DNA of 64,000 bases from Vicinamibacterales bacterium (GCA_965197935.1 CBDAOD010000002.1:1154849-1218848), one strand, 5' to 3'; counted from the first letter of the stretch, positions 26,683-57,251 are shown. Program-made: numbers and translations. The notes: generated by a model not told the origin, from the sequence alone.

Positions 26683-26689
26683 CTTGCTG

Positions 26690-27792
26690 ATGATCGCCCA
26701 TCTCACGGATCGGGCGGTGGCGCTCGCCGCGCTCGGGTGGACGGGCCAGGATGCGGAGTGGCTGGCCTTCGTCTGTCTGCATAGTGGCGTGTTTCTGCGC
26801 GCGCAATATCTGACGTTCACCGGTGAAGCATCCCCGTCTGCGGCCGCCCGCTTTGTCGAACGGTGCGGGGCGGCGGCGGTCGAGGAGACGTTGAACGGGA
26901 GCGGCCGGCTCTTAGAGTCTCCCTCTGGGATGGGTGAAACCCCTCGCCTTTAGGCGAAGCCTTCAGGAGGCCGCAGGGCCGGACCTCTTCGGGCTCTGGG
27001 ACGTGCGCCGTGATAGTCGGCTTCAGCCGACGCGGCGCACTGATTCCCTCGCCTTCAGGCGAGGGAGACTCAATGTGTCGGATCGTCGCGCGGCCGGTGT
27101 ACCGGGCGCTCGGGGCGGAGCACATTCGGCACCGGCGCGCGGCGTCGCATGGGCTGGTGGTGCGGCGGTTGCTGTCGCTCGATTACGTCCTTGACCATGC
27201 GGCGCGGCCGTGGCTGGTGACGGAGGAGGAAAAGGTCACGGCGTTGACGGCGGCGGGGGTGCCGGAGGCGGTGCTGCCGCGGCGTGTGTATGAGGGGCAC
27301 CAGCCGGGCACGGGGCAAACCCGGTACTTCGTCCACAAGTTGCCGGTCGCGCTCGATACGGACCGGGCGACGTTCGTGTTTGTCCAGCCCCCTGGGGACA
27401 TCACGCAGCAGGCGTTGCGCTCGTGGGGCGCGTCGCACGCGGCGCTGTGGGCGGCGCTGCGGGCGGCGGGTCGCGTGGTCACGGTCGTCGTCGTGGGGCA
27501 GGATCCGGAGCGGCTGGCTGCGGCGCAGCACGTGGTGAACGGCTGGACGGCGACCGGGCCAGCGGCCCAGGCCGGGGGGAAGGATGTGGCGGCTGAGCTG
27601 GCGGCGCTCCGCTCCGCCGTGATCGCGGGGGACCCGGAGGTGCTGCGCCGCGAGGGTGGACTAAATGGGGCACTGGTGCGCCTCGCGGCACTGCAACAGC
27701 AGCGGGACGAGACGCAGGCCGGTGCGACGGGCATCGCGCCACACATCACGAGCGGGGAGACGTGGCGCTCGCGGCGGGTGGCGGTCCCATGA
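26690..27792 (+). pseudogene. ICE-associated hypothetical protein interrupted by the 158-bp element
   Basis: Removing 26916-27073 gives the in-frame junction GRL-LV-CRIVARPVY. ATGA overlap with virD4. Confidence 0.75.
26916..27073 (+). mobile_element. 158-bp non-autonomous IS200/IS605-type element, copy 1
   Basis: Follows TTAG, ends TCAA, no target duplication, subterminal CCCTCGCCTTYAGGCGA hairpins. Identical by eye to 50583-50740 and 57094-57251. Confidence 0.9.
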
Positions 27793-29807
27793 TCGTGATG
27801 CTGGTGCTGCTGGTCGTGGGCGCGAGCTGGTGGTGGATCGCCCCGTTCCCTGGGCCGGGCGCGGATCCGGTCGTGGATCTGCTGGCGGCGCGGTCGCCGT
27901 GGCTGCACGAGGCGATCCGGGCCTGGCATTACCTCGCGCCGGGCGTCGCGCTGGTGGGCGGTTGGTTGGTCGCGCGGGCGGTCGGGCGCGTGTGGTTCGC
28001 GTCACGCGGGCTGCCGGCCTGGCAGATCGCCGCCAGCGATGCGACGCCGGCCATCGTGGTCGGGGAAGTCCATCATCCGGTGGCGCTCCGGGAAGTGCCG
28101 GCGCCCCGCTGGCTCACGATTCCGGAGCGGGGCCTCTATACGGGCATCCTCGTCGTCGGCGCGATCGGCTCGGGGAAAACCTCCGCGTGCATGCGGCCGT
28201 TCGCGCGGCAACTGCTCGCCTGGCAGGCGGACGATTCGCGGCGGCGCATGGCGGGCCTGGTACTCGAGGTCAAGGGCGATTTTTGTCATCAGGTCCGGGA
28301 CATCTTGATCGCGGCGGGCCGCGGCGAGGACTACATTGAACTCGGCCTCGGCGGGCGTTGGCAGTGGAACCCGCTGAGCGCGCATTGGCTCGACAGCTAC
28401 TCGCTGGCGTACACCGTCGCCAGCTTGATCAATCAACTGTTCGGCAAGGGTAGTGAACCGTTCTGGCAACAGGCGTACACGAACCTGGTCCGCTGGCTGA
28501 TCGAACTGCACCGGATGCGCCCCGGCGGCTGGGTGACGCTCCGGGACGTGTACCGCTGCGCGCTGGAACCGGAGCGGATTGCCACGCTGATTGCCGAGGT
28601 CGCGGCGGAGGTGGACCCGCCGCAAACAGTCCGGATCGAGAACGCGGTGGCGGTCGAGTACGCCGAGGCCCTGACCAAGGACTGGGTGTGGTCGGAGGAG
28701 GTGCCGGGGTTCGCCGAGACGAGGGATTCGGCGGAGGTCCGACACACACTCGAGGCCTTGGGCATCACGTTCACGGTCGAGGGCGGGCCGACGGCCGGCG
28801 GCGACCCGGCGCAGCGGGAACGGCTCGAGGCGGTGCGGCGGTGGTTCACCCACGATTGGGGCAAGCTCGACAAGAAAATCGGTTCGACCGTCTCCGAGGG
28901 GCTGTCCGTGTTCCTGTCGGTGTTCGATCTGCCGGAGGTGGCGTCGGTGTTCTGTCCGCCCGCGCCGCCGCCGCGGGCCACGCGGGCGAAGGCGACGGCC
29001 GGCGATGAGGCGGAGCTGCCAGCGGTCGGCGATGAGGCGGACCTGCCAGAGGCCGGGGCCGGCGTGACGCGGCCGCTTCCACCGCTCGACGAGGTGATTG
29101 AGTCGGGGAAGGTGCTGGCACTGAATATGCCGGCGGGGACGAATGCGGCGCTGGCGCGCGCGGTCGGCGTGATGCTCAAACAAGCCTGGCTCCAGACGTT
29201 GCTGCGCCGGCCGGCGCAGATGCAACGGGCGCCGAATCGGGTCTTTCGACCGGCCATGTTCCTGTGCGACGAGTATCAGAGTTTCGCCACCGTCGGCGAA
29301 GAGGATCCGAGTGGCGACGAGAAGGCGTTTGCGCTCACGCGGCAGTGCCGGCTGATTCCGATTGTGGCGACGCAATCCATCTCGTCACTCCGGGCCGTGC
29401 TCGGGCGCGGGGAAGCGTGGCGGGCGCTCCTCCAGACGCTCCGGACGCGGATCTTCCTGTCGCTGTCCGATGATGCGTCGGCGCAGATCGCCAGCGGGTT
29501 GTGCGGGCAGGTCGCCAAGATGAAAGCGAGCTACACCGTCTCGGAGCAGACGGCGCGCGCGAGCGCGTCGCTGCTGTCGGGGGCGGCCGGTGGCGGGACC
29601 GGCAGCGTCGGCGCGAGCAAGGCGTTTGCTGAACGCCGGGAACCGCTGTTCCATCCGCGGGACTTCACCATCCTCGGCAACTGTCAAGCCATCGTGCAAC
29701 CGTACGACGGGAGCCGATCACTCGATGCCACGCGCTGCTACCTCAAACCGGACTTTCTGCCGTCGGATCGGCCGTACTGGCGGGCGCGTGAGGCCGGGGA
29801 ACTGTAG
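27789..29807 (+). CDS. virD4: Type IV secretion coupling protein (VirD4/TraG-like)
   Basis: N-terminal TM helices; GAIGSGKT; EVKGDF; DEYQSF; ATQS. Intact. Confidence 0.85.
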   Translation: MIVMLVLLVVGASWWWIAPFPGPGADPVVDLLAARSPWLHEAIRAWHYLAPGVALVGGWLVARAVGRVWFASRGLPAWQIAASDATPAIVVGEVHHPVALREVPAPRWLTIPERGLYTGILVVGAIGSGKTSACMRPFARQLLAWQADDSRRRMAGLVLEVKGDFCHQVRDILIAAGRGEDYIELGLGGRWQWNPLSAHWLDSYSLAYTVASLINQLFGKGSEPFWQQAYTNLVRWLIELHRMRPGGWVTLRDVYRCALEPERIATLIAEVAAEVDPPQTVRIENAVAVEYAEALTKDWVWSEEVPGFAETRDSAEVRHTLEALGITFTVEGGPTAGGDPAQRERLEAVRRWFTHDWGKLDKKIGSTVSEGLSVFLSVFDLPEVASVFCPPAPPPRATRAKATAGDEAELPAVGDEADLPEAGAGVTRPLPPLDEVIESGKVLALNMPAGTNAALARAVGVMLKQAWLQTLLRRPAQMQRAPNRVFRPAMFLCDEYQSFATVGEEDPSGDEKAFALTRQCRLIPIVATQSISSLRAVLGRGEAWRALLQTLRTRIFLSLSDDASAQIASGLCGQVAKMKASYTVSEQTARASASLLSGAAGGGTGSVGASKAFAERREPLFHPRDFTILGNCQAIVQPYDGSRSLDATRCYLKPDFLPSDRPYWRAREAGEL

Positions 29808-30797
29808 TGGAACTCTCGCTCAACGATCTGAAGCCGTTTCTTCCTGGGCTGGAATCCGTGCTCGATGACGACGAGGTGTCGGAACTGATGGTGAACGGGC
29901 CGGGGACGGTGTTTGTGGAGCGTGGCGGTCGCATGACGGCCATGCGGGTACCGGAGCTCGACGAGGCGGCGGTGCTCCGGGCGGCGGTCCAGATCGCGCG
30001 GCCGTTGGGGCGTGATCCACACACGGAGCCGATCATCGATGCGCGGCTCGGGGACGGCTCGCGCGTCGCGATTTGCAGTCCGCCGGCGTCGCCGTGTGCG
30101 GCGATCACGATCCGCCGGTTCGGCGGGCGGGCGTTCACGATGGCGGAGCTGGTGGCCAGCGGCGCCGTCTCACCGGTGGTCGTCGACGAGGCGCGGCACG
30201 TCCTGCAGTATGGCGGCAACATCTTGATTGCCGGGGGCACGGGCTCCGGCAAAACCACGCTGCTCAATGCACTCGTGGCGCTGCTCCCCGAGGCCGGGCG
30301 CATCGTGTCGATCGAGGACACGCTCGAGCTCCAGCTCCGCCGCGCGAACTGTGTCCGGTTCGAGGCGCGGGGGTTGACGGGCGCGGTGACGATTCGGGAC
30401 TTGGTGCGCCACGCGCTGCGGCACCGGCCGGATCACATTGTCGTCGGCGAGGTCCGCGGCGCGGAAGCGGCGGACTTGCTCCAGGCGCTCAACACCGGAC
30501 ACGGGGGGCTCGCTGGCGACGGTCCACGCGAATCATGCGACGGCGGCGCTCTCGCGGTTGGCGAGCTGCGCGATGCAAGCGAGCGATGCGCTGCCCTGGT
30601 CGGTCGTCTGTCGCGGGGTGGTCGATGGGATCGAGGCGGTGATTCAACAGGCGCGGTCGCCGGAGGGTGTGCGCCAGGTCATGCAGATGGTGCGCGTGCG
30701 GGACTATGACGCGACGCGCAATACGTGGATCGTCGAGGACGTGTGGCCGTCGTCGGCGGCGGGCGCGGCCGCGGCATCGGAGCGGTGTCAGGAATGA
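29807..30797 (+). pseudogene. virB11: VirB11/CpaF-family secretion ATPase with a +1 frameshift
   Basis: GGTGSGKTTLLNAL, IEDTLEL, PDHIVVGEVRG, LNTGHGG. SLATVHAN continues in another frame after a G6 run near 30503-30508. Confidence 0.85.
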
Positions 30798-30815
30798 GGG
30801 ACGAAGGGAGAGACC

Positions 30816-32109: not shown

Positions 32110-32262
32110 TGGCCGCCGCGGGCGTCGGTCGGCTGAGGGTCGTCAAGACGTCGGACTGGAGCATGGCATCACGATCCAGAACGGCCATGATGGTCGCTCG
32201 GTGTGTGAGCGACATAGCGTCAGTGTCCGGGGTGTGCGCCCCCCTTCCTGGAAGGAATAATC

Positions 32263-34243: not shown

Positions 34244-34253
34244 GGATAAAGCT

Positions 34254-39913: not shown

Positions 39914-42469
39914 ATGATCAAGAGCCACGTCGCACTCAGCCAGGCGATCGAGAAGTTCGTCCGATCGCCCACAAATCCGGCCGCCGAAGGGTATCGATCG
40001 CAGCGTACCGAGATCCTGAAGCGCTTTCCACGCGACAAGTGGCCAGAAATGCGGCTGGACGATTACGCGCTGGGCCAGCCAGTGGTGGAAGACACTTACT
40101 GCCGCTGGCTGGAGTACAAGTCTCAGTGGATGGGCAGCATGCGAGGTGGATCCGCCAGGAAGCTGATCATCTACAAACGGAAGGATCGGGAGGAATGGTA
40201 CTTTCCGAAGGCGTTTTCAAATGAGCGGGAGGCGTGGGACCGGTTACGGAGCGAGTTCTCGCAGGCATTCGAGCTAGCAGCGCGTGGCGAGTGGGAACGC
40301 ATCGACGAGCTCGAGACGCTGGGACTCGGGCCGGCGGTGAAGCTGAAGTCGCTCCACGTGTATTTCCCCGACGAGGTGCTGCCCGTCTACGCGACCGCCC
40401 ACCTGCGACATTACCTGCGTTCGTTGGATCGCCCCTCGGAGGAGGTCAACGCGTCGTCGGTGGTGGCGCTGAATCGGTTCTTGCTTGCGGCCCTGCGGCG
40501 CGAACCTGCGGTGGAGGGCTGGAACACTGAGGAGCTGCAGCGGCTGCTCTACAACTGGCGCGATCCGCGCGAGACGAAGCGGGTGTTGAAAATTGCGCCA
40601 GGCGAGGATGCGCGGTTCTGGGACGATTGCTTGCGGGAGAGCTACATCTGCGTCGGCTGGGACGAGGTGGGCGATCTCTCGCAGTTCGAATCGAAGGAGG
40701 TATTCCGTACTCGGTTCGAGGAGGCCTACCCCTACAAGGGGCACCTTCCCCAGGCGAGACGGAAGGGCAACGAGCTGTGGACGCTTACCGAGCTGGAGCC
40801 CGGCGACCTCGTCGTCGCCAATCAAGGTATCGGCCGAGTGCTTGCCTTGGGAGAGGTTGTCCAACCGGGATATCGATGGGCCGATGAGCGTCCCGAGTAC
40901 CAGCACACGGTAGCGGTGAAGTGGAACACGACCTACGAGCAACGTGTGGCACCACAGAAGAGCTGGGCAACCGTGACGGTCGCCAAGGTGCCTGACACGC
41001 TGCTGAGGACCATCGTGAGGGGCAAGAAGGCGCGCCCGATGGTGGTCGATGCTGTGTACGGGCGCATCGCCACGGCCCTCGAGCGCAAAGGCCAGGTGAT
41101 TCTGTATGGGCCACCGGGCACCGGAAAGACCTACCAGGCCAGGCGATTCGCGGTCTGGTGGTTGTTGAGACAGATCGGCCGTGAGGGGGCCGACACGGTG
41201 CTTGGCGATTCTGATCGGTTGCGCGAGGAGGAGCGTGAGCTCTCGACCTCCCAGGTGTCGTCGCGGGTCTGGTGGGTGGTGGCCAACCCGAAGCAGTGGA
41301 GCTGGGACCGGCTCTTTCTGGACGGCAAGGTCGACTATCGATACGGTCGCCTCAAACGGAACTATCCGCTGGTACAACGGGGCGATCTGGTGATTGGGTA
41401 CCAGAGTACGCCAGACAAGCGCGTTGTGGCCCTTGCACGGGTGAGTCGGGAACTCCAGAGCGTCGGCGACAACGCCCCAACGATTGAGCTAGAGCCTGTC
41501 GAGCAACTCAACCGCGGACTGAGCTATGACGAGCTGATGCAAGACGCGGTACTGGCGAAGAGTGAGCCGATGCGGTTCAACAACCAGGGCACGCTCTTCG
41601 CGCTGACGGAGACCGAAGCGGAGCACCTCTTCGTGCAGCTAGCGGAACGTCATCCACAGCGTGCCATCCTGGAGCAGGCCGGTGATTCGGGCACGACGGC
41701 CAGCGTGGGCTCGCTGACCCGCGTGACGTTTCACCCCTCCTACACGTACGAGGACTTCATCGAAGGGTTTCGTCCTGTCGCGGGCGGAGCTGGCGGGTTG
41801 TCGCTGGCGCTCGACGACGGCGTCTTCAAAAGGGTCTGCCGCGCCGCTCAGGCGAATCCCGGTCGTCCGTATCTCCTGCTGATAGACGAGATCAATCGTG
41901 GCAACGTCGCCAAGATCATGGGCGAGCTACTGACGCTGCTCGAGCGAGACAAGCGTGGCCTCACCCTGACCCTGCCGCAGAGCAAGGAGACCTTCAGCGT
42001 GCCGTGCAACATGTTTCTGCTGGGCACGATGAATACCGCTGATCGCAGCATCAAGCTGCTCGACGCCGCCCTGCGACGGCGCTTCGCGTTTCTCGAGTGC
42101 ATGCCCGACAGCGAGCTGCTGCACGGCGCCGCCGTCGGTGACCTCGCGCTCGACGACTTCCTCGATGGGCTGAATCAGCGGATCGCCCGAGTCGAGGGAC
42201 GTGAGAAACAAGTGGGTCATTCGTATCTACTGGTCGACGGTCGGCCGGTAGACGAGGTCGAGGAGTTCGCGGCCCGGTTCCGAGAGGAGATTCTGCCGCT
42301 GCTCCAGGAATACTGCTACGACGAGTACGCGACGCTGGCGAAGTTCATAGGCAGTGAGCTGGTCGATGCCGCCGCCGGCACACTGGACGCGGAGAAGGTT
42401 GCCGACGCCGAGCAACTGGTTGCGGCGTTGGCGCGAGAGTTCGGTGAGGGTGAGGTCTCCTCGGCATGA
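39914..42469 (+). CDS. mcrB: McrB-family AAA+ GTPase with N-terminal reader domains and an EVE-like insertion
   Basis: GPPGTGKT, FHPSYTYEDFIEG, IDEINRGN, MNTADRS, LRRRF. Probable start MIKSHV at 39914. Confidence 0.9.
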   Translation: MIKSHVALSQAIEKFVRSPTNPAAEGYRSQRTEILKRFPRDKWPEMRLDDYALGQPVVEDTYCRWLEYKSQWMGSMRGGSARKLIIYKRKDREEWYFPKAFSNEREAWDRLRSEFSQAFELAARGEWERIDELETLGLGPAVKLKSLHVYFPDEVLPVYATAHLRHYLRSLDRPSEEVNASSVVALNRFLLAALRREPAVEGWNTEELQRLLYNWRDPRETKRVLKIAPGEDARFWDDCLRESYICVGWDEVGDLSQFESKEVFRTRFEEAYPYKGHLPQARRKGNELWTLTELEPGDLVVANQGIGRVLALGEVVQPGYRWADERPEYQHTVAVKWNTTYEQRVAPQKSWATVTVAKVPDTLLRTIVRGKKARPMVVDAVYGRIATALERKGQVILYGPPGTGKTYQARRFAVWWLLRQIGREGADTVLGDSDRLREEERELSTSQVSSRVWWVVANPKQWSWDRLFLDGKVDYRYGRLKRNYPLVQRGDLVIGYQSTPDKRVVALARVSRELQSVGDNAPTIELEPVEQLNRGLSYDELMQDAVLAKSEPMRFNNQGTLFALTETEAEHLFVQLAERHPQRAILEQAGDSGTTASVGSLTRVTFHPSYTYEDFIEGFRPVAGGAGGLSLALDDGVFKRVCRAAQANPGRPYLLLIDEINRGNVAKIMGELLTLLERDKRGLTLTLPQSKETFSVPCNMFLLGTMNTADRSIKLLDAALRRRFAFLECMPDSELLHGAAVGDLALDDFLDGLNQRIARVEGREKQVGHSYLLVDGRPVDEVEEFAARFREEILPLLQEYCYDEYATLAKFIGSELVDAAAGTLDAEKVADAEQLVAALAREFGEGEVSSA

Positions 42470-43830: not shown

Positions 43831-44307
43831 CAGCACTTCCGTCTGCACAGGGGGCAGAATGCGGGTGTCCTACAGGCGCAAGAAGGCCTAACTCTGAAGT
43901 CCGTTTCGAAGGCTGATGCGATGCTTGATCACGGTCCGTACACCGCTTCATAGCGCTCCCGCGCCAACGCCTGCTGCTCACGTTTCTCAGAGATCTCGGC
44001 TCCTCGCTTTCCGATGGGTGCGCTGCCGCCTCCGGCCAGTACGGCATGATGGGCTATCTGCACGAGGGCCGACAGTACATCGTCGTGCAGGTGGCTGGCC
44101 CGGACCTGCCCGGATCGCTAGCGGCGCTGCGGTTGCCATGACGGGCAATGGCCTCCCACAGTGACTACGCTTTTCCGCGAGCTTGACTGTCGCCCACGCT
44201 GGTTCGTATCGAAGACAACGCGGGTCACGCTTCGTCCATACGAACTGCAGGATCTCTTTGATCAGATGATATCGATATAGGTATCGGGACTTCAGTCGGG
44301 GACACGC

Positions 44308-47300
44308 ATGACGGACTTTATCGACATCCAACGTCGATTCGTCGACCTGACGGACGCGACACTCGATGATATCGAGCTTCTCCTTTCATTGAGCGAACAT
44401 GAATTCCGCCCGAGTATCGGCTGGTCAGAATTGTTAGAGTACGGTCGGGTCATTTTGCTCGCGGAGGCGGGGGCCGGAAAGACCAAAGAGATGGAAGTGC
44501 AGGTGAAACGCCTCGTTGAAGAAGCTCAGTTCGCCTTTTTTCTCCCACTCGAATCCCTCGATCGCACACCGGTTATCGACCTATTCTCAGCGGCTGATGA
44601 AAGCAATTTCGAAGCCTGGAAACGGGATGGTGACGCGCCAGCTTGGTTTTTCCTTGACGCGGTGGACGAGCTGAAGCTTACGAAGGGCAAGCTCGATAGA
44701 TCGCTTCATTTCTTTTCGAAGGCGATCAACGGCCACCTCGGCCGCGCGCGAGTCATCATTTCTTGCCGTCCCAGCGACTGGCGTCCAAGTCTCGACATGA
44801 CCACGGTGCGGAATAAGCTGCCTGTGCCTGCGAGAGGTGACGATAATGTCTTGAGCGACGGTGACGAAGTGTTCATTGGGGCGCTTAGGCGTGACGTCCA
44901 AGACACGAGCACTGCTACTCCAGAGGCACGGGATGTTGCCGATCAGAATGCCTTCCGAACGGTAGCAATGCTTCCGATGAACGATACACAGATCAAACTC
45001 TTCGCGGAGCAGTCGACCGTGAATGACGCGGCCGCGTTTCTTGCTGAGATCGCCGGACAAAACGCCTGGACATTTGCCCGTCGTCCCTTGGACCTGACGG
45101 AGTTGATCGCAACTTGGACGAGCTCGGGGCGTCTCGGGACTCGGGCAGAGCAGCACGAGACGAACGTCACGACCAGGTTGAGCGACGATCCCGATCGACC
45201 CGACCACGGTGTTCTCACCGACGTTCAGCTTCGCCGGGGTGCGGAGCGCCTCGCGCTCGGGCTCGCGGTCACCCGCACACGTAACATCCGATCCCCAGAA
45301 CAAGCATTGGACATCGACCGAACGGACGGGGTCCTTGATGCGGCGAGCATCCTACGCGACTGGACCGACGCCCAACGGCAAGTGCTACTTCGACGCGCTC
45401 TATTCGACCCTGCCACCTACGGTCGCGTTCGCTTTTATCATCGTTCAGTTCAGGAGTACCTCGCTGCCAAGCAATTGCTGACGCTGCACGAGCAGGGCAT
45501 GTCAACGAAGGCGCTATTTCGTCTACTGTTCGCGGAACGCTATGGCGTTGAAGTCGTGCGTCCATCAATGCGTGCGGTCGCCGCGTGGCTCGCGCTGTGG
45601 AATGACCCGGTGCGCCGCGAGTTGATCAAGCGCGAACCCGTGGCGCTTTTGACGCTCGGCGATCCGGAGACACTCGACCTTCCCGACAGGGGCAACCTCG
45701 TCCGGGCGTGTGTGGCGGCCTACGGCCATGGAGGATGGCTGCGCCTGGACATTCCAGAGGACGAAGTGCGCAGGCTTGCAGACCCGGCGCTTGCACCCGT
45801 AATACGCGAGTGTTGGGGAGACGGACCGGTGAACGACGATGTTCGGGAACTGCTGGTCACGATGATTTGGCTGGGACCAGTCGATAGCTGTGCCGACTTG
45901 GCTCTTGCGGCGGCATGGGACACAACGTGGTGCCCGTACGGGCGCATTATCGCCATCCGGGCGCTTCTTGCCTGTGGCCAGAAGGTCAGCGTCCGAGAGC
46001 TTGCAGATGATATTTTGGCCAGTCATGCGTTCTGGCCAGATAGGGTCGTGCACGGTGTCGCGGCAGATCTATTCCCCAAGATCATCACGGCCGAAGAGCT
46101 GATCACGTTGATGGAGCGAACCCGCGAGCCGAAGCAATCTGTTGGCGGCTTTGGTTGGGTAACGCGGAGGATTGTCGAGACCATTGAGCCGTGGTCGGAG
46201 GCGGCGGTCGGTTTGCGCGACGAAATGAAGAGCCTCATCTGGCGCGGACGTGAGCTAACGCAGAAGTCGTACCACATTTGCGGCAGGTTCAATCACCTCG
46301 CGCCAGCGCTTGCAATACTGTGCTACCGGCAGCTTTCCGAGGCGGCCAAGCAACTGGATGCCGACTTGATCCATGCCTGCGTGATCGCCTCTCGGTTCGG
46401 TGAGAATGAGTCCAGTAGGCATGACACGGTTGCGAAACTCAAGGAGTATTTTGAGATGGACGCAGCATTGCGAAATGAAAGCTTCTGGGTCGAGCTGGCG
46501 TTCATGGACCAGGTCGCTCCGGTAAATGACGACTGGCATCGTTTCTACCAGACGGCGGAATACGGTTTGGTCAGTCATCCAACCGAGGCTGATCGGCCTT
46601 GGCTCGAAACAGCCCTTGCAGACGAGAGCCGGCCGGAACGACGTGCCGTCTCGCTTCATGCTTTGATTCAACTCTGGTATCGGCGAGGGCGAATTGTTGG
46701 AGAACTGAACGCTATCCGAGCAAATCTGAAGGGTGATTCGGTCCTCGAGCAGATCTTGGCAGAACGTACCGCGCCGCCGGAGCAGGCCGAAAGTCTTGAG
46801 AGAATGGAGCGTAAGCGTCGGCGCCGGCAAACCATGGAGGCGCGCCGAGAGGCGGAACGTTTGGAGAAATGGAGGAAATGGCGCGACGAGTTGCTTGCCG
46901 ATCCCGCCAGCGCATTTTCGGAGGAAAAACGAGCAGCGACATTGTCCGACATTTATTCGTGGCTTACCGCAAATTGCGGAGAGCGGAATCGCTACAATAT
47001 TTGGGACAAAGGCGCATTAGAACGGGGGTTCAGTCCGGACATCGCGGCCCGCGTCGAGAAGGCGTTTAAGACGCTGTGGCGTACTACGCGACCGGTGCTC
47101 TGGTCCGCGCGTCCAGTCGAGGAAAGGAATAGGACGCCTCGCGTTTGGATCTATGGGCTACTGGGCGTCTCGGCCGAAGCCGCGACACCGGGATGGGCAG
47201 GGTCTTTGTCGCCCGATGAGGCGCGCATCGCAGCGGCTTACGCGACCATAGAGTTGAATGGACTTGCACCGTTTATTACAGACGTGGCGGAATCGCATCC

Positions 47301-48678
47301 TGCCGAAGTGGAAGAGGTTATAGGCAGCGAGCTGAGCGCCGAGCTTTCAGTTGGCAGCGACCATGATTATCTTCCAACCCTTCAGGATTTGACGTACGCG
47401 GCGGGTAGTCTCAAGCAGCTCTTTGTCCCTCGCCTTCTTGCCGAACTGGAGTCTTGGCCGCAGGCGTGGACCAGCGACACAGCGCAGCGGTGGGCGCGGC
47501 AGCTTGGTCAGGTACTGGACATTCTAGGCGAGGCGAATGACGAGGCGGACCGAAATGCGATAACGCAGGAGTGTGCCAATCGCTACGAGTCCGATCCGGC
47601 CGGAGCGCTGGCGTGTGTGTGGCTCAGAGGTTTGGTGCGGTGCGATGGTGTACGGGGAACGCGGGCGCTGATGGCAGGGCTCGCAGATGCTAACGACCCC
47701 GGCGTCCGATCTCGTGCAATTGAGATATTCGCGGAAGTCTTTGGTCGTGACGGCGTCGTTTTCGATATCAAGGATCCCGTTCAACGTGCATACGCTTTTG
47801 GGCAACTGGTCCGTTGCGCCTACACCTTCATTCGCCCGGAGGACGACGTAGTCCACGAAGGCGTATATTCTCCGAGCAAGCGTGATGATGCGGAAGCCGC
47901 TCGAAGCTTCCTGCTTTCCAGGTTACTCGACACCCCGGGGCCGGTGGCCCGGGGTGTTGTGCTGGAGCTTGCTGCTGATCCCAGTTTTGCGAATGTTTCA
48001 GATTATCTGCGACTGCGTGCTGAACAGCGGACGGCAGCCGACGCGGAGTTCGAAACGCCGTTTGAGCCCGAGGAGGTGAATGCGCTCTCTGCCCGCCTTG
48101 AAGCTCCAGCACAAGATCGGGACGATTTGTTCGTGGTCATAATGGACCGGCTGGACGATCTCGCCCGTGACTTAGCCCATCACGATTTTACAGATCGACG
48201 GACGGTCAGGAGCATCTCGGATGAGTCGGAGATGCAACGTACGCTTGCGTGGCGTATTGCTGACAAAGCGAACGGTGCCTATTTGGTAACACGGGAAGAC
48301 GAGGTCGCCGACCGGAAGCGTACCGACATCCGACTGTTGTCGGTCAAAGGCGGTCAGAGGGCGGTCGTGGAAGTGAAGATCGCGGATAAGCGCTGGACGC
48401 TAACAGATTTTCAACGTGCGCTCCGCAACCAACTAGTAGGTCAGTATTTGCGACACAGGAATTGCAAGGCCGGTTGTCTATTACTTACCGATCACGGAAG
48501 AAGGACGTATTGGGTACATCCTGATACCAGAAAGCACCTCAAGTTTCTGGAGATGGTGGAGTTTCTAAACAATGAAGCGCGAGCTCTCGAGATTGAAACC
48601 ATGCATGATGTTCGCGTTGCAGTTTTTGGCCTGGACCTTTCCGACCCGCCGCTCGCCGGTGCGCATCGCGGAAGTTGA
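44308..48678 (+). CDS. Large STAND/NACHT-like ATPase with C-terminal PD-(D/E)xK nuclease (Avs2-like candidate)
   Basis: LLAEAGAGKT, FFLDAVDE, SCRP, FYHRSVQEYLAA. C-terminal EDEV..RKRTDIRL...VVEVK. 1456 aa, intact. Confidence 0.7.
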   Translation: MTDFIDIQRRFVDLTDATLDDIELLLSLSEHEFRPSIGWSELLEYGRVILLAEAGAGKTKEMEVQVKRLVEEAQFAFFLPLESLDRTPVIDLFSAADESNFEAWKRDGDAPAWFFLDAVDELKLTKGKLDRSLHFFSKAINGHLGRARVIISCRPSDWRPSLDMTTVRNKLPVPARGDDNVLSDGDEVFIGALRRDVQDTSTATPEARDVADQNAFRTVAMLPMNDTQIKLFAEQSTVNDAAAFLAEIAGQNAWTFARRPLDLTELIATWTSSGRLGTRAEQHETNVTTRLSDDPDRPDHGVLTDVQLRRGAERLALGLAVTRTRNIRSPEQALDIDRTDGVLDAASILRDWTDAQRQVLLRRALFDPATYGRVRFYHRSVQEYLAAKQLLTLHEQGMSTKALFRLLFAERYGVEVVRPSMRAVAAWLALWNDPVRRELIKREPVALLTLGDPETLDLPDRGNLVRACVAAYGHGGWLRLDIPEDEVRRLADPALAPVIRECWGDGPVNDDVRELLVTMIWLGPVDSCADLALAAAWDTTWCPYGRIIAIRALLACGQKVSVRELADDILASHAFWPDRVVHGVAADLFPKIITAEELITLMERTREPKQSVGGFGWVTRRIVETIEPWSEAAVGLRDEMKSLIWRGRELTQKSYHICGRFNHLAPALAILCYRQLSEAAKQLDADLIHACVIASRFGENESSRHDTVAKLKEYFEMDAALRNESFWVELAFMDQVAPVNDDWHRFYQTAEYGLVSHPTEADRPWLETALADESRPERRAVSLHALIQLWYRRGRIVGELNAIRANLKGDSVLEQILAERTAPPEQAESLERMERKRRRRQTMEARREAERLEKWRKWRDELLADPASAFSEEKRAATLSDIYSWLTANCGERNRYNIWDKGALERGFSPDIAARVEKAFKTLWRTTRPVLWSARPVEERNRTPRVWIYGLLGVSAEAATPGWAGSLSPDEARIAAAYATIELNGLAPFITDVAESHPAEVEEVIGSELSAELSVGSDHDYLPTLQDLTYAAGSLKQLFVPRLLAELESWPQAWTSDTAQRWARQLGQVLDILGEANDEADRNAITQECANRYESDPAGALACVWLRGLVRCDGVRGTRALMAGLADANDPGVRSRAIEIFAEVFGRDGVVFDIKDPVQRAYAFGQLVRCAYTFIRPEDDVVHEGVYSPSKRDDAEAARSFLLSRLLDTPGPVARGVVLELAADPSFANVSDYLRLRAEQRTAADAEFETPFEPEEVNALSARLEAPAQDRDDLFVVIMDRLDDLARDLAHHDFTDRRTVRSISDESEMQRTLAWRIADKANGAYLVTREDEVADRKRTDIRLLSVKGGQRAVVEVKIADKRWTLTDFQRALRNQLVGQYLRHRNCKAGCLLLTDHGRRTYWVHPDTRKHLKFLEMVEFLNNEARALEIETMHDVRVAVFGLDLSDPPLAGAHRGS

Positions 48679-48822
48679 GGCGGTAGACCGCAAGGCGCTC
48701 AGGTCCCGGTTCATGGACGACGTGAGTGAGCGCCTCCTCGAAATCCTCCGGGGCCGGGCGGGCCTAGAAGTGTTCGAGAACTTGATTTGTGATCGCCTTG
48801 ACCGTATGGGCTACGGGCTTAT

Positions 48823-49412
48823 GGTCACATTCTGGGATGGGTGAACCCCCTCGCCTTCAGGCGAAGCCTTCAGGAGGCTTGCGATACGATGTCCGATGAT
48901 GCGCGAGTATCGTCGAGCTGCCCATACGATCTATACCCTGCACTACCATTTCGTGTTCATCACGAAGTATCGCAAGCCGGTGCTGCGTGGGGATGTGGGC
49001 ACGGAGGTGCGGACCCTGATCCGGGAGATCTGCCGGAGCCACGACATCGAGATTCTGCAGGGGCACATTCGACCGGACCACGTGCACTTGCTGTTGAGCG
49101 TGCCCCCGCACCTGGCGCCGAGTCGGGTGATGCAAGCGATCAAAGGCAAGACGTCGCACCATCTGTTGCAGGATCACCGGAAGCTGCGGTCGTTGTTCTG
49201 GGGGCGGCACCTGTGGGCTCGCGGCTACTTCGTGTGCAGCAGCGGGAATGTGACGGATGAGGTCATCGAGCAGTACATCAAGCTTCAAGGTGCTGAACCC
49301 CAGGACGACGAGCGCTTTCGAGTCAGCGAGTAAGTTCGCTGGGGCGCCGACGCCCCTTCAGTCGACTTCAGTCGACCCGTGAATCCCTCGCCTTCAGGCG
49401 AGGGTTGTTCAA
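48823..49412 (+). mobile_element. IS200/IS605-family element (tnpA only)
   Basis: Follows TTAT, ends TCAA. Subterminal hairpins TCGCCTTCAGGCGA at both ends; guide-like GAAT before the right hairpin. Confidence 0.9.
48896..49333 (+). CDS. tnpA: IS200-type HUH (Y1) transposase
   Basis: HFVFITKYRKPVL, PDHVHLLL (HUH), IKGKTS, LWARGYF, YI. Confidence 0.95.
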   Translation: MMREYRRAAHTIYTLHYHFVFITKYRKPVLRGDVGTEVRTLIREICRSHDIEILQGHIRPDHVHLLLSVPPHLAPSRVMQAIKGKTSHHLLQDHRKLRSLFWGRHLWARGYFVCSSGNVTDEVIEQYIKLQGAEPQDDERFRVSE

Positions 49413-50582
49413 GCGAGTTGGCTCGAGCACTTATCAAAAAGATGGTGACATTGACATTGTCGCGTGGCCCCGCGCGTCATTGTTTCCATTTCTTGTGGCG
49501 GTCCAAGCCAAGCACACCATACGTCCAGAACACAGGATTGGACCTGCACCCGTTCGGGAGCTCCTGGGTGCAGTGCAGCTGCACGGGTTTAATGCTGGGC
49601 TTCTGGTGACCAACACGAGCTTCACTCCAGACGCGGAATGGGTTGCTGAGCGCAGAGCCCTCTTGATGCGGCTACCTAGCGCGCTGGCTGCGCGACGAGT
49701 ATCCACGCGAGGCAGAATGGCGCGAGATACCTGCCGAGATAAAGATATGCCCTGGCGTCGTGATCAAGCTTCCACGACACTAGAAAGGCCTGCGACGCGC
49801 GGCATCAACGGCCTGCGTAGCCCGTGCTGCCCAGTTTCTACACCGCGCATGGTCTCTGAAGTGTCAGGGTGCCTGTCCACTGGTGTCGTAGGCCCAGGTC
49901 GGTCCGAGTCCACGACGATCGTCGCGTCGCCGAACGCGCCGAGAGAGACGGGGGGAAGCCTGGCCCGCTGTTTCAACCCTCGCCCGACCACGTGATCTGC
50001 GATCATGGAGACGGTCCCCGCTGCGGTCGAAGCGGCGCGTATCGCCGGGCCCCCGCCATCGTGGACTCCTTCTCGTATAAGGGTTAGGTGTTCACGAGAA
50101 CGGGGCAAGCCCACTCCGTAGCCGCGAGACGCCCTATATGGCAAACCGTGTGGTGGACGTGCTGTCGCGGATGTTCAACGTGGTCGAGGTTTAGGGTGTG
50201 GTCCCGTGGTGGTTCAGATTACGATTTGTCCGGCTCGGTATTAGATCATCTGCGTGTCCGTGTTGAGGCGAGATCGGAGAGAGTTGCGTTCCATGTCCAG
50301 CGTCAGCGTCACTGACATCGTGAAAATCCTCAGCGGGGTGGGACTCGCGCCCACCGAAACGATAGTCATTCCAGGACGAGACTCCAGGAACAGCCCCGTG
50401 CCCCCAGGGCTGCACACGAGTGTCAAGGCAGTGCTTTCGAGGGATTGTCCAGGCGGTCTCTACTCGCATCAAGCTGCGGCAATCCAACAGATTCTTGATG
50501 GCCGGGACATATGTCTGGCAACGCCAACGGCTTCTGGGAAGAGCCTGGTCTTCATGGCTGCTGCCGCAGAACTCACTCTTAG

Positions 50583-50740
50583 AGTCTCCCTCTGGGATGG
50601 GTGAAACCCCTCGCCTTTAGGCGAAGCCTTCAGGAGGCCGCAGGGCCGGACCTCTTCGGGCTCTGGGACGTGCGCCGTGATAGTCGGCTTCAGCCGACGC
50701 GGCGCACTGATTCCCTCGCCTTCAGGCGAGGGAGACTCAA
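50583..50740 (+). mobile_element. 158-bp non-autonomous IS200/IS605-type element, copy 2
   Basis: TTAG at 50579-50582, ends TCAA. Removal gives LTLR-EQSARVLALYP in frame. Confidence 0.9.
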
Positions 50741-52753
50741 AGAGCAGTCGGCTCGGGTCTTGGCGCTCTATCCAGCCAGGGCACTGATTCAAGATCAGCT
50801 TGCGAAGTGGACACAGTTCCTCGACCCGATGGGCACGTCTGTCGGTTTTGTCGACGGCAGCGTTGCCACCGCGTCTCGTCCGAACATCCTAGCTTCGTCG
50901 CGGGTTGTGGCAATGACTCCGGACGTAGCACATGCGTGGCTCATGAGCCATCTCGGCACTCCTGAGGTGACGAGCTTCCTCAAGAGCTTGTGTCTCGTGG
51001 TCCTCGACGAGGCGCATGTCTACGATGGTGCGTTCGGAACCAACATGGCCTATCTTCTCAGGCGGCTTGCGCTCACCTCAGCGCCCTACAGATTAGTTTG
51101 CAGTACCGCGACGGTCGGGGCTCCGAAGCGGTTCATTCAGCAGCTCACGGGCCGTGAGATGTTGGTTCTCGATGACGGCGACGATGGCAGCGCCCTCTTT
51201 CAGAAGACACTGCTTCAAGTGGAATCTTCCGCCAAGGGCGGCTTCGACCGAATCGTCCAGCTGCTGTCCGGACTGGCGAAGTATGGCCGGGCACGATTCC
51301 TGGCCTTTGGTGATTCCCGAAAGATGGTTGAACTTATCGTCGGCGCGATTCTTCGTGAGTCTGTCAGCGAATCCGATGGCAAAGAGGATGAGACCGATGA
51401 GCTTTCCAATGAGAAGGAGTACAGAGGGTGGCCGAAGCTTGAGCACGTCCTCCCATATCGCTCTGGCTACGAAACGACTGACCGCGAGGCGATTCAGAAA
51501 GCATTGACGAATGGTTCACTAGCTGGTGTTGTCTCGACCAGTGCTCTGGAACTAGGACTGGATATTGGAGACCTCGACGTTGTCGTTCTTCTGAACACAC
51601 CGCCGACAGTCAAGTCGTTCCGGCAACGGATCGGAAGGGCAGGGCGCAGGCGAGATGCTGTCTGCATCCTTATAGACGACCAAGGCGTGATGGCTCCTTT
51701 GCCTCAGTATGTTGACCGGAGCCCAGAACCTAGCTGGTTGTATCTTGACAACCGGTATATTCAGTATGCAAACGCCTTGTGCGCTGCGGCAGAGCTTCAG
51801 ACGGTTGGATTTGTCTCAGTTGAGAATCTCGACTTCGGCGGCCTGCCTGACACCTTTCTACGCTTATTGGAGAATGAGCTGAATCCAACTGCCGCAGTCG
51901 AGAATGACCTCTATGGCCTAAAGCAGCGCGCACAGGCCAATCCTCACTATGAGTTTCCAATTCGCTCTGCTGCCGAACCCAACTTCGAAGTAGAAGGGCC
52001 GTTCGGTTTGAAACTGGGAACATTGTCGTATGGTCAAGCGCTACGAGAAGCGTATCCCGGTGCGGTGTATCACTACATGGCACGCCCTTTTCGGATTCAG
52101 TCGCTCGAGTACAAGAAAGGCCTAATCAGAGCCTCGAAGTCAAAACGCTTCACTACCAAGCCAGTTACAGACACGATGGCTTTTCCAGATTTCCGAAACG
52201 GCCTCATCAAAGCATGGAAGTCCTCCAATGGTTTCGTTGCCGAGGTTGAACTTCAAGTGAACGAACGCGTGAAGGGATTCGTTGAGCGACGTGGCCCGAA
52301 CACACTGCCGGTTCACGAATACGGAACTGGATCACCGTACAGTCAAAAAAGCTTGTCTCGGCTGTTCCGGACCACGGGTGTTTGCTGGACGTTTCCTTCA
52401 AAGTTGGATAGGTCACCAGCCGCCGCGGATCTCCTGATGAAGGCCTTCGCATTTAATTGCGGAATCCATGAACGTGATCTCGGCACCGCTTTCTTTCACT
52501 CCAATGAGGGCCCCTTTTCGTCCGACGCGCTCAAGGGCACGGTCATTTTCGATGCGACAAACGGGAGTTTACGCTTAACGGAACGGCTAGCTCGAGACTT
52601 CGCAAGAATAATTGACTCAGCCATCGGCCACACCGACGTAGGCTCAACGGTCCGAAGTGAGCTAGAAGCCCTGCACCAACTGGTCGACGAACTTGAGCCG
52701 GCTGCATCCGTCTCGGGCCGTGTCAACGACTTTGAGACAACCTGATTCAGCAT

Positions 52754-53869
52754 TTAGTGTAGCGACTCCACGCTGGTAACGAGCGTGGCCGTGCGATCGT
52801 CGATGCGTGGTGGCGGGCCCATCACGCCCGGCTGCAGGTCGTTCGGGGTGACGGTCGTCGTGCTTGGGGCCGCATGGCTGGGGTGTGTCGGTGGCCGATT
52901 GATCCAGACCGCCGTGGGCAGGGTCTCTGGACGTGGTGGCCCTTGCACGAACCGCTCGGGATGGGCCGCGTAGGCGGCCAGGCGCGTGCGGTGACGGGCC
53001 GCCAGGACCGTGGCGGCGCGGCCGTAGTGGACATCGGCGGGCGTCAGATAGCTCAGGCCGCTGTGATGGTGCGCGTCGTTGTACCACGCGAACAGATCGC
53101 GGCTGACGCCGCGCGCGTGTTCGAGTGCGCCGAACCGGCCCGGAAACTCCGGCCGGTACTTCACGGTCCGGAACTGCGCTTCGGAGAACGGATTATCGTT
53201 GCTCACGCGGGGGCGCGCATGACTGGCGGTGATGCCCAGATCCGAGAACAACAGCGCGACGAGCTTGCTGCGCATGGGCGCGCCGCGGTCGGCGTGAATC
53301 GTGAGCTGCTGCGGCTGGATGCACTGCTTTGCGCAGGTCTGCTCGATCAAGCGCTCGGCCAAGTGCGCATTCTCGTGGCGCGCCACCATCCAGCCCACGA
53401 CGTAGCGGCTGAAGAGGTCGAGGATGACGTAGAGCGAGTAGTAGAGATAGGGGACCGGGCCTTTCAGCTTGGTGATGTCCCAGGACCAGACCTGATTCGG
53501 GCTCGTCGCGACGAGTTCGGGGGCGGCATAGGCCGGATGCCGGGCCTGGGCGCGCCGCTCGCGCACTTCGTGGGCCGCGGCGAGCACGCGATACATCGTG
53601 CGCGGGGAGCAGAGGTACGTCTGCTCCTCGAGCAACGTGGCATGGACCTCGGTGGGCGACTGGTCGACGAACCGCGCGCTGTGCAACACGTCGAGCACCG
53701 CCTGGCGCTCGGTCGCGCCCAGCGCGCGCGGCGACCGCGCCCGGGGCCGTGGAGGTGTGGCCGGCGGCGCGGGGCGCCGCCGACGGTAGAGTGACGCCCG
53801 GGACACCCCGACGCTCTGACACAGCGCCGCCGTCTCGCCTGGCGTCGTGACGGCGTCGATGGCCTGCAT
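52754..53869 (-). CDS. IS3 OrfB (DDE transposase)
   Basis: VWSWDITKL, DLFSRYVVGW, HADRG, NDNPFSEAQF. An A9 run upstream at 53925-53933 is a candidate frameshift site. Confidence 0.9.
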   Translation of the reverse strand: MQAIDAVTTPGETAALCQSVGVSRASLYRRRRPAPPATPPRPRARSPRALGATERQAVLDVLHSARFVDQSPTEVHATLLEEQTYLCSPRTMYRVLAAAHEVRERRAQARHPAYAAPELVATSPNQVWSWDITKLKGPVPYLYYSLYVILDLFSRYVVGWMVARHENAHLAERLIEQTCAKQCIQPQQLTIHADRGAPMRSKLVALLFSDLGITASHARPRVSNDNPFSEAQFRTVKYRPEFPGRFGALEHARGVSRDLFAWYNDAHHHSGLSYLTPADVHYGRAATVLAARHRTRLAAYAAHPERFVQGPPRPETLPTAVWINRPPTHPSHAAPSTTTVTPNDLQPGVMGPPPRIDDRTATLVTSVESLH

Positions 53870-54357
53870 TAGTCGGTCTCGTCGTCGTCGAGGGGTGTCA
53901 GGGGGATCCCCAGGATCTCGGCAATTTTTTTTTGGAGCGTGATGATCGTCTCCGCGCGCTGCAACTTCCGCTGCAACCGGCGGTTCTCGGCCTCGAGCTG
54001 GGTCACCCGCGGGTCGACGGGGCGCGGCGTCGGGCCCCGGCGGCGCCGGGGCATCTCCCGCAGGGCGCCCGCCTCGCGCTGTCGCCGCCAGTTCGTCAGG
54101 AGCGACGAATACAACCCCTCGCGACGCAACAGGGCGCCCACCTCGCCGGGTTTCTTGCACGCGTCGACGGCCTTGAGGATGCGGAGCCGATACGCGGCCG
54201 AGAAACGCCGCCGTTGGACCGTCGCCGGCACTTCCGGGTCCGGGGCGCGGGCCGGGGTCGTGGTCGCGGGGCCGGGGCCTCCCGTCGCCCTCCGGGCTCC
54301 CTCCACCCCCGGCCCCGCGACCACCTCGCTCTCCACCGCGTCTGGCATGCGCGTCAT
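53869..54357 (-). CDS. IS3 OrfA (HTH)
   Basis: RRRFSAAYRLRIL...LLRREGLYSSLLTNWRRQ. Confidence 0.9.
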   Translation of the reverse strand: MTRMPDAVESEVVAGPGVEGARRATGGPGPATTTPARAPDPEVPATVQRRRFSAAYRLRILKAVDACKKPGEVGALLRREGLYSSLLTNWRRQREAGALREMPRRRRGPTPRPVDPRVTQLEAENRRLQRKLQRAETIITLQKKIAEILGIPLTPLDDDETD

Positions 54358-55026
54358 CTCTCCAACCTCTCCCGCCCCTACACTAATCTCACTCGGAAGG
54401 TTGTCTCACCGATTATTGGCACAGGGGGTCTCAACGTCTTTACCCGTTGCCGCCGAAGGAGACTGGATTCGCGTTATCGATCGTGAACAACCTGCAATGT
54501 ACCTCAGTGGCGAGGCGCCAGCGGAGGTGAAGGTGCTGGACTTTCGCTATACGCCGCATGGCTTGATGTATCAACTCGAGCCTCTGCGGGACTCCGGCTA
54601 TTCCATGACTGTCGAAAAGGGCAAACTCGGGGCCGAGAAGACGATCACGAGGAATGCTCCTTTGAGATGGATGGTCATCGCTTCCGACATCCAGGCACTG
54701 AGCGGAAGAACAAGGATGGTTCAGTATAACGTTGTAACAGGCGAGGAGGCTTCGGATGTTCAGTCTAGCGACCGCGACTTGTAACGGTTTGCTTTGGATT
54801 ATTGGCGTGCGCCGTTGAATGCCTGCACGTCCCAACGATCGAGCGTAGCTGAGGATTTATCAACTCGGCAGTCTCTCTGCCAGGCCGAAGAGAAAGTCTT
54901 TGATCTCACGGAGTCGGTCGCATGCGATCAAAGAGCTTCCAGAAGCTCCACCGGGGATACCCCGCCACCACGTCTGTCAGAGCCGCGCTGACGAGGGCAT
55001 CCCGTCGACTCGCTAGCACCGGCGAT

Positions 55027-56497: not shown

Positions 56498-56559
56498 GGA
56501 CGAAGTACAGTCACTCTCGGACTCTAAATCGATCCGCTACTGAAGACGGGGGGACGTCG

Positions 56560-56960
56560 CCTGAGGCCGATAAAACGCCGCCCGCGACAGCCTCACCACG
56601 CGACAGGCCCGCTGCACCGGCAGTTGGTGCTCGCCGACCAGCATCTCGGCGACCTGTCGCTTCGCGGACGGCCCTATAACTTTCGGCTCAGCACATCCTG
56701 AATGGCCGCGTTCTCGAGCGCCAGGTCGGCGTACAGCCGCTTCACGTTGGAGACACTCGCCCCGCCGTGCTTGCTGCGCCACTTGAAGAAGGTGGCCCGG
56801 CTGACCCCATGCTTCCGCAGCAGGTCGTTGACCGGCACGCCCGCCTCGGCATCCTTCAGGATGCCGACGATCTGGGTCTCACTGAACTTCGACTTGCGCA
56901 TGACCGCTCCTTGAACCGGAGCAGTCTACCCTCGGCTGTCGCTCAATCGGGGAAGCTTAC
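56560..56960 (-). mobile_element. Second IS3/IS407-group fragment
   Basis: orfA 56674-56901 (MRKSKFSETQIVGIL, internally deleted) and the start of orfB. Confidence 0.75.
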
Positions 56961-57018
56961 GAAGAGCCGATCTACAACACTCTTGACGTCTGTTGGGTCG
57001 GCGCATCCGTAGCGTCTT

Positions 57019-57058
57019 CTGCCAGCCGGACTGCCAGCCGTTTCTGGTTCTGTCAGCC
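57019..57058. repeat. Putative integrase arm-type sites (CTGYCAGCC x3 direct)
   Basis: Copies at 57019, 57031 and 57050; same motif as 23768-23814. Confidence 0.6.
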
Positions 57059-57093
57059 ACTTTCTGACCTGTTGTGACCCGTTGTGCTTTTAG

Positions 57094-57251
57094 AGTCTCC
57101 CTCTGGGATGGGTGAAACCCCTCGCCTTTAGGCGAAGCCTTCAGGAGGCCGCAGGGCCGGACCTCTTCGGGCTCTGGGACGTGCGCCGTGATAGTCGGCT
57201 TCAGCCGACGCGGCGCACTGATTCCCTCGCCTTCAGGCGAGGGAGACTCAA
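57094..57251 (+). mobile_element. 158-bp non-autonomous IS200/IS605-type element, copy 3
   Basis: TTAG at 57090-57093, ends TCAA. Lies between the arm repeats and the att core. Confidence 0.9.

Follow-up and report, generated by a model that had tools for sequence, protein, structure and literature searches.

Three copies of a probable transposase-less IS200-group element in a bacterial genomic island, and co-variation of guides and cleavage sites among its relatives

The 158-bp element and its known counterparts

Palindrome-associated transposable elements (PATEs) are defined by palindromes near their termini, the absence of target duplication and the absence of a transposase (PMC3119063). 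They were first described in Haloquadratum walsbyi (PMC3119063), and a bacterial case comes from Geobacillus stearothermophilus (PMC10055086). For the transposons IS608 and ISDra2, a rule has been worked out by which a guide tetranucleotide pairs with the cleavage site; IS608 pairs T-4 with A and C-3 with G (PMC3201880, PMC5934647, PMC5027513). Here, we analyze a 64,000-nucleotide stretch of DNA from a Vicinamibacterales bacterium (CBDAOD010000002.1:1154849-1218848; “the window”; G+C content 64.6%) that carries three copies of a 158-bp element. The three copies are very probably one homogeneous PATE, a transposase-less derivative of the IS200 group (IS200/IS605 family) that would be mobilized in trans by a TnpA transposase via guide pairing. 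PATEs are already known as a kind, and the 158-bp element adds a new one.

A preliminary description of this DNA had reported three identical 158-bp copies that follow TTAG, end in TCAA and lack target duplication, and direct comparison and BLAST confirmed this. The copies (Table 1) are 100% identical over 158 bp, all lie on the + strand and all end with TCAA; three exact 158-mers cannot have arisen by chance. Identity among the flanks stops after 4-7 nt on the left (TTAG, plus CTC common to copies 1 and 2) and after 0-1 nt on the right, and thus there is no target duplication. A misassembly artefact was considered and rejected, given that the element and its filled junctions are present in several independent metagenome runs and in a second assembly (L080).

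The complementary ends, two hairpins, nested hairpin and AAAC and GATT tetramers of the preliminary description could all be located within the element. The third base of the left guide lies opposite nucleotide +1 of the element, at the same offset in every copy. The ends AGTCTCCCTC (element 1-10) and GAGGGAGACT (element 146-155; 50728-50737 in copy 2) are complementary; this complementarity stops 3 nt short of the right tip and overlaps the arm of the right-end hairpin. The motif GCYTTCAGSC occurs four times within the element, and the element folds, as DNA or as RNA, with a z-score of about -6.5 relative to shuffled versions. Four of the six reading frames contain stops, and the other two (one per strand) hold at most 52 codons.

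Leaving aside the lack of terminal inverted repeats (see below), every PATE feature that we tested was found in the element: it is gene-less, its sub-terminal hairpins resemble those of a resident insertion sequence (IS), it makes no target duplication, it sits at a fixed TTAG and it carries complementary guides. Like described PATEs, it is too short for a transposase, its palindromes are akin to those of a resident IS200/IS605 element, a fixed short oligonucleotide stands at its left flank and it forms a homogeneous family with many near-identical copies. Unlike the known PATEs, its host is a high-GC bacterium, probably of the Acidobacteriota (Vicinamibacteria-like), in a host-associated community. 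The parent is also of a different kind, a tnpA-only element of the IS200 group, and therefore the 158-bp element holds neither a tnpB remnant nor an omega RNA. A third difference is the complementarity of nucleotides 1-10 with 146-155.

By the proposed mechanism, a dimeric Y1 HUH TnpA, provided in trans, would bind the left-end and right-end hairpins of the single-stranded + (top) strand. The cleavage sites would be positioned by DNA-DNA pairing, AAAC with the flanking TTAG and GATT with the terminal TCAA. TnpA would then cut 3' of TTAG and 3' of TCAA, which would free a single-stranded circle and reseal the donor, and the circle would re-insert 3' of another TTAG, preferably before T or A, without target duplication. 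Of this, the data show the anatomy of the element, its target, the lack of duplication, guide co-variation, empty sites in related strains, high copy number without divergence and an intact tnpA nearby. The identity of the mobilizing TnpA, the single-strand chemistry and any present-day activity are inferred.

Guides and cleavage sites across relatives

A scan of a genome collection with the left-end motif, using one genome per species, returned at least 79 loci in many phyla that keep the left-end hairpin motif; about 90 related elements were compared. The loci listed are mostly from Acidobacteriota, with others from Myxococcota, Cyanobacteriota, Cloacimonadota, Bacteroidales, Parcubacteria and further groups. 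Across these roughly 90 elements, guide and cleavage site co-vary at both ends. At the left end, guides AACC and AAAC are flanked by TTAG; AAAT, AACT and AAGT by TTAA; AAAA by TTAT; GAAG by TCAC; ATTT by ATAA; and GATA by TCAT. The left-end exceptions are single cases (L040, L042, L052 and the IS in the window). At the right end, guide GAAT goes with cleavage site TCAA, GAAC with TCAG, GAAG with TCAC and CAAC with TGAG. Thus, the proposal of the preliminary description that AAAC/TTAG and GATT/TCAA follow the IS608 guide rule is upheld by co-variation at both ends of the relatives.

The pairing scheme of IS608 fits the relatives: guide bases 2, 1 and 4 are the partners of T-4, base -3 and base -1, respectively. 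Position 4 of the left guide co-varies with the -1 base of the flank as C:G, T:A, A:T and G:C. The third guide base tracks nucleotide 1 of the element (C:G, G:C, A:T or A:A, T:A or T:G) and also the first nucleotide of the right flank; this flank nucleotide is G where guide position 3 is C, C where the guide is AAGT, and T or A where it is AAAC. It follows from the latter that the effective target of the miniature element would be TTAG followed by T or A. A TTAG flank is found for all three window copies and for three related short elements (L082, L085 and L087), and the next base is T or A in 6/6. ISDra2 has a fifth pair, G+1:C+15, as quoted in PMC5934647, and a similar fifth recognition position would make the target here effectively a pentanucleotide.

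The element can be set beside IS608 and ISDra2 point by point. As in both, a guide tetranucleotide stands 5' of the foot of each hairpin, with the same crossover of bases 1 and 2 (T-4 with guide base 2, the -3 base with guide base 1). TTAG/AAAC of the element parallels TTAC/AAAG, and TCAA/GATT parallels TCAA/GAAT. The third guide base fits the nucleotide that follows the cut, which is also the case in ISDra2 (PMC5934647), and as in IS608, A and G are the two bases 3' of the right-end hairpin (PMC3201880). Unlike IS608 and ISDra2, the element targets TTAG rather than TTAC or TTGAT and has no tnpB, and their mechanism would apply to it by analogy. The spacings also differ (25 nt from left cut to hairpin, 8 nt from right hairpin to cut), and an extra small hairpin (TCYC..GRGA) follows directly after the left cut. 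The guide and target pairs confirm, cleanly and in natural sequences, the DNA-guided cleavage-site rule derived from IS608 and ISDra2, and they extend it, fifth (+1) position included, to a very widespread and uncharacterized IS200 subgroup.

Short elements without genes occur among the relatives as well. A search of JGI metagenomes for a left end-gap-right end pattern yielded six. Three of these (L082, L085 and L087) share their termini, AGTCTCCCTC...GAGGGAGACTCAA, and their architecture with the window element, and the other three (L083, L084 and L086) are more distant; the exact interior of the element had no match among the JGI metagenome contigs. Further gene-less derivatives were found in the genome set (L056 and L050). 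Separately, one Acidobacteriota metagenome-assembled genome holds at least 15 copies of gene-less elements of about 250 nt that have the same left end (guide AACC) and other structured cargo (L012, L020, L022, L025, L030, L031, L043, L045, L048, L057, L058, L061, L064 and L065). At L064, two such elements are in tandem, the second beginning directly after the TCAA of the first. Rfam returned only sub-threshold matches to the 250-nt element of the L012 type.

Table 1. Coordinates of the element, its parts and neighboring features in the window
Feature	Coordinates	Strand	Details
Element, copy 1	26916..27073	+	158 bp; 3' of TTAG (26912-26915); exact copy by comparison and BLAST
Element, copy 2	50583..50740	+	158 bp; 3' of TTAG (50579-50582)
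Element, copy 3	57094..57251	+	158 bp; 3' of TTAG (57090-57093)
Left guide G_L, AAAC	element 22-25; copy 2 50604..50607	+	directly 5' of left-end hairpin; predicted to pair with flank TTAG
Left-end hairpin, CCCTCGCC-TTTA-GGCGAAG	element 26-44; copy 2 50608..50626	+	presumed TnpA binding site
Interior nested hairpin, GTGCGCCG..GTCGGC-TTCA-GCCGAC..CGGCGCAC	element 88-125; copy 2 50670..50707	+
Right guide G_R, GATT	element 127-130; copy 2 50709..50712	+	predicted to pair with right cleavage site TCAA
Right-end hairpin, CCCTCGCC-TTCA-GGCGAGGG	element 131-150; within copy 2 50713..50740	+	followed by AGAC, then TCAA
Right cleavage site, TCAA	copy 2 50737-50740	+
Autonomous IS200-type IS	48823..49412	+	590 bp; left guide AACC, right guide GAAT; ends TCAA, follows TTAT
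tnpA	48896..49333	+	145-aa Y1 HUH transposase; PF01797, E = 5e-42; HVH motif and GYF tyrosine readable
Conjugation-module gene split by copy 1	26690..27792	+	314 aa after element removal; immediately upstream of type IV coupling protein gene
Helicase gene split by copy 2	50293..52745	+	764 aa from ATG after element removal
Left direct repeat	23688..23727	.	40 nt, exact repeat; 5' half of tRNA-Thr(CGT)
Right direct repeat	57302..57341	.	40 nt, exact repeat; tRNA-Thr, attR-like

Candidate transposase source, insertion sites and spread

The window contains an intact tnpA, 1.2 kb from copy 2, in an IS of its own (Table 1). Its product has 6616 homologues, the closest at 90% identity. The preliminary description had stated that the ends of the element resemble those of this IS, and BLAST bears this out at both ends, with 96% identity between element 9-56 and 48831-48878 and likewise 96% between element 126-150 and 49380-49404, so that a 48-nt left end and a 25-nt right end are shared, both hairpins included. 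One correction concerns the IS, which is preceded by TTAT rather than TTAG and has AACC rather than AAAC as its left guide. The IS interrupts a gene for an Mrr-type restriction endonuclease, with halves of the Mrr_cat domain on either side. The last residues of the left half are ...LDRMGYGL, and the match of the right half (49405-49995) to the Pfam profile starts only at position 25. Deleting exactly the 590 bp of 48823-49412 rejoins the Mrr frames, which fixes the boundaries of the IS. These boundaries give an 8-nt offset before TCTGGG that is identical to that of the miniature element.

The IS is multi-copy, its interior having about five times the depth of its flank. A second copy elsewhere is flanked by ...TTTAG followed by GGTCACAT (at a loose contig end), and metagenome contigs from four runs hold uninterrupted Mrr alleles that read CTT(G/C)A directly followed by GCGAG at the insertion site. 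Because the other copy follows TTAG and the empty Mrr alleles have CTTGA or CTTCA, TTAG is, from these comparisons, the apparent normal target of the IS, and the TTAT beside the window copy (48819-48822) is mismatched to its guide AACC. This TTAT could reflect either an off-target insertion or a flank mutation that immobilized the copy at 48823-49412; excision of this copy is probably impaired, owing to the TTAT flank. No DNA match to the IS was found in a plasmid collection.

Like the IS200 of Salmonella, the window IS belongs to the ~0.6-0.7 kb class and is tnpA-only, and its AGGAGG ribosome-binding sequence, upstream of tnpA, is overlapped by a stem-loop (GCCT-TCAGG-AGGC), in which it resembles Salmonella IS200. 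The latter sequesters its ribosome-binding site in a hairpin. Unlike in that comparison, the DNA sequences themselves are unrelated, and the 158-bp element is a gene-less derivative.

Two of the three copies lie within genes, as the preliminary description had claimed, and removing exactly 158 bp restores both frames. Without copy 1, a 321-codon open frame results whose 314-aa product has no Pfam family; this conserved gene (309-320 aa) has 1179 full-length homologues of 300-320 aa, the closest at 83% identity. An intact orthologue lies in L081, a related contig of 1.89 Mb, between VirB8 and TraG/type IV coupling protein (T4CP), inside a complete type IV secretion system (T4SS) module. Without copy 2, a 780-codon open frame results in which DEAD and Helicase_C domains extend across the junction; the insertion falls between motif I (TPTASGKS) and motif Ia of this DEAD/DEAH helicase, for which BrxHI and SngC are the best PADLOC matches. 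Copy 3 is intergenic, with no long open reading frame (ORF) across the site; it lies within the island described below, 50 nt short of the right boundary repeat. The effect in the window is plain insertional inactivation of a defense helicase gene and a conjugation-module gene. For annotation, the element and the IS explain three pseudogene calls: the helicase, Mrr (via the parent IS) and the conjugation-module gene.

Empty sites were found for copies 1 and 2. Contigs of runs X1, X2 and X3 skip exactly 26916-27073, and contigs of runs X2 and X4 skip exactly 50583-50740. At L081, the empty allele for copy 1 reads ...GGCTGTTAG directly followed by TGTGCC..., where the window has ...GGCTCTTAG, the 158 bp and then TGTGTC.... 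For copy 3, an exact empty site was looked for and none was found. The empty sites equal left flank plus right flank exactly, which proves the boundaries and the lack of duplication but not reversibility. All of the empty alleles sit on diverged haplotypes (6+38, 13+12 and 5+19 differences from the window). With so many other differences, they show insertion polymorphism rather than excision: the empty alleles are those of related strains or paralogous islands into which the element never inserted, and are not products of excision.

The element has spread widely in host-associated metagenomes. In run X1, word depth is 10-13 for single-copy flanks, 64 for the IS interior and 835 for an element-specific 125-nt contig, which places the element at ~65-80 times flank depth; 33 contigs of this run cross the ends of the element. 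The 125-nt contig has zero variant positions, which points to a recent spread. In the left-end hairpin region that is shared within the IS200 subgroup (window 50597-50636), depth reaches 40,000-46,000 where the genome has about 10; this left end is thus extremely abundant across members of the community. The main added value of this element lies in natural co-variation data and in evidence that it expanded recently, and on a large scale, in a host-associated community, and the element will break short-read assemblies of genomes that carry such copies.

Several points weigh against the reading of the three copies as a PATE mobilized in trans, and in particular against the neighboring IS as its parent. 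(i) The IS and the element differ in the left guide (AACC/AAAC), the hairpin loop (TTCA/TTTA) and the first 8 nt, and the IS lacks terminal complementarity and is flanked by a non-matching TTAT. Given these differences, the IS may not be the parent of the element. The closest left end, among the matches listed, belongs to a Vicinamibacterales IS (L005/L051), and either the window IS or a relative of it could be the source of transposase. (ii) In a family described without terminal inverted repeats, a 10-nt complementarity of the ends is out of the ordinary. One relative (L003) has a similar 12-nt complementarity, and most relatives have none. In a single-stranded circle, GAGGGAGACT-CAA-AGTCTCCCTC would form a hairpin across the junction of right and left ends. 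(iii) Neither an empty site on the same haplotype nor the circle junction (...GGAGACTCAA joined to AGTCTCCCTC...) was seen in assembled contigs, which drop rare variants, and movement in the source strain would be deduced from sequence comparison rather than from biochemistry or reads. (iv) The ratio of element depth to flank depth varies from 1.4 to ~118 between runs. Several genomes probably carry the element, and copy number per genome is uncertain because other community members may contribute.

The preliminary description had gone further and presented the element as a TnpA-mobilized miniature switch. The assignment to the miniature type of the IS200/IS605 family is supported by the hairpins, guides, cleavage sites and lack of duplication; reversible switching is not, since the only empty alleles are diverged ones. 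An adaptive on/off switch, in which insertion silences defense and conjugation genes and precise excision by TnpA reactivates them at a useful frequency, would be transposon-based phase variation of anti-phage defense if true, and nothing here shows this. We consider it quite unlikely, even though excision in the IS200/IS605 family reseals the donor precisely (PMC5027513), removal of exactly 158 bp restores both frames, presence/absence polymorphism exists in natural populations and an intact tnpA is close by. Any IS200/IS605 insertion is reversible in principle, and nothing specific to a switch was found. The diverged haplotypes speak for insertion polymorphism only, the excision joint of copy 2 is absent from the contigs of X1 (the run that holds most of the window) and copy 3 is intergenic. 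The island is also decaying, with a truncated integrase, T4SS genes missing relative to L081, an IS in Mrr and an rve-type IS. Since the island is a degenerate integrative conjugative element with defense cargo, gene loss through the insertion of mobile elements is the simplest reading. We give similarly low credence to a broader variant, in which the interior is a module extra to transposition (a TnpA-binding or regulatory site, or a small RNA) and frequent insertion and precise excision at rare TTAG sites in the host-associated Acidobacteriota population generate reversible on/off variation of defense and conjugation genes at the population level.

The interior hairpin and the island

The interior of the element appears to be a retained, constrained part of the right end of its parent, on two grounds. 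The window IS has an equivalent hairpin (GTCGAC-TTCA-GTCGAC, 49358-49373) between the tnpA stop codon and the right guide, and in an alignment of eight elements the pairing of the inner hairpin (GNCGRC-TTCA-GYCGNC) is kept through two-sided changes at 2/6 pairs. RNAalifold, run on eight relatives, favors cross-pairing between the arms of the left-end and right-end hairpins; this result was not relied on, since these hairpins are nearly identical and cross-pairing is therefore indistinguishable from two local hairpins.

The preliminary description had also suggested that the structured interior might be transcribed as a right-end RNA, and we found no support for this. Such an RNA could serve as the omega guide RNA of a TnpB or IscB whose gene lies elsewhere, or it could be some other small RNA made from the interior and right end. 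PATEs often encode omega RNAs that are used in trans (PMC10055086), compensatory changes keep the interior hairpin paired in relatives and four sponge metatranscriptome assemblies contain the element in full. We nevertheless judge a functional RNA very unlikely. Rfam gave no credible match to the 158-bp element, at gathering score or at E <= 10; tnpB/iscB and OrfB/TnpB domains were absent from the window ORFs tested, and the parent type of IS holds tnpA only; and a scan found no promoter-like or terminator-like site within the element. Only about 100 nt lie to the right of the left end, which is short relative to known omega RNA scaffolds. In the metatranscriptomes, the whole element lies inside longer contigs with unrelated flanks, at a depth of 3-9; these are compatible with read-through transcription or DNA carry-over, and no discrete RNA was seen. 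The hairpins could equally work as single-stranded DNA. From the window and these searches, the element does not resemble omega-RNA-bearing PATEs. Separately, in an RNA contig of run X9 (window 50658-50741), the right end and an added AT are followed by part of a second copy of the interior, going back 84 nt, which points to a tandem or rearranged variant within the community.

Domesticated repeats with host functions that are handled by a REP-associated tyrosine transposase (RAYT) were rejected as a highly improbable alternative: although the repeats are numerous and hairpin-rich and some database homologues of TnpA carry the automatic name 'REP-associated tyrosine transposase', repetitive extragenic palindromes (REPs) and bacterial interspersed mosaic elements (BIMEs) are, in part after PMC3333891, intergenic palindromic units of 20-40 nt that flank a single-copy RAYT gene, whereas here the unit is 158 bp long with distinct ends, guides and cleavage sites, 2/3 copies lie inside genes, and tnpA belongs to a bounded, multi-copy 590-bp IS (~5x flank depth) that interrupts a gene.

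The three PATE copies and the IS all lie within an island of ~33.6 kb that is bounded by tRNA-Thr repeats (Table 1). It is unusual for integration to duplicate the 5' rather than the 3' half of a tRNA gene. The cargo comprises a tyrosine integrase fragment, T4CP, a VirB11-like ATPase, ArdC, a type I methylase and S subunit, McrBC, the interrupted Mrr, the interrupted helicase and an rve-type IS; compared with L081, the island lacks the T4SS genes that would lie upstream of the copy-1 gene. The island is thus a degenerate integrative conjugative element with defense cargo. Its tyrosine integrase ORF (26158-26820, - strand) matches only the C-terminal part of the Pfam profile and abuts a truncated VirB8-like remnant (26406-26915), and this suggests that the island can no longer excise or transfer. 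The source contig measures 2.65 Mb, and proteins of Acidobacteria and Vicinamibacterales share 75-78% identity with the UvrA encoded outside the island.

TTAG occurs at a quarter of the frequency expected from base composition. No tetramer is more depleted in the chromosomal part (1-23727 and 57302-64000) of the window, where TTAG has an observed/expected ratio of 0.11, with 5 sites on each strand over 30 kb, and other TA-containing words are also depleted there; the island has 22-26 TTAG sites per strand. The depletion may reflect target avoidance, or simply the depletion of TA-containing words in a high-GC genome. The IS200/IS605 family prefers insertion with its top strand in the template for lagging-strand synthesis. 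GC skew is positive on the island's + strand, in weak agreement with this preference.

Two further observations concern the island cargo. A 1456-aa ORF between McrC and Mrr (44308-48678) has no Pfam or PADLOC match and encodes a large, uncharacterized protein among defense genes. The rve-type IS carries an IS481- or IS3-like transposase gene (52754-54160, - strand), and segment 52698-54539 has a metagenome depth of 800-8000; this is another high-copy IS of the same community.

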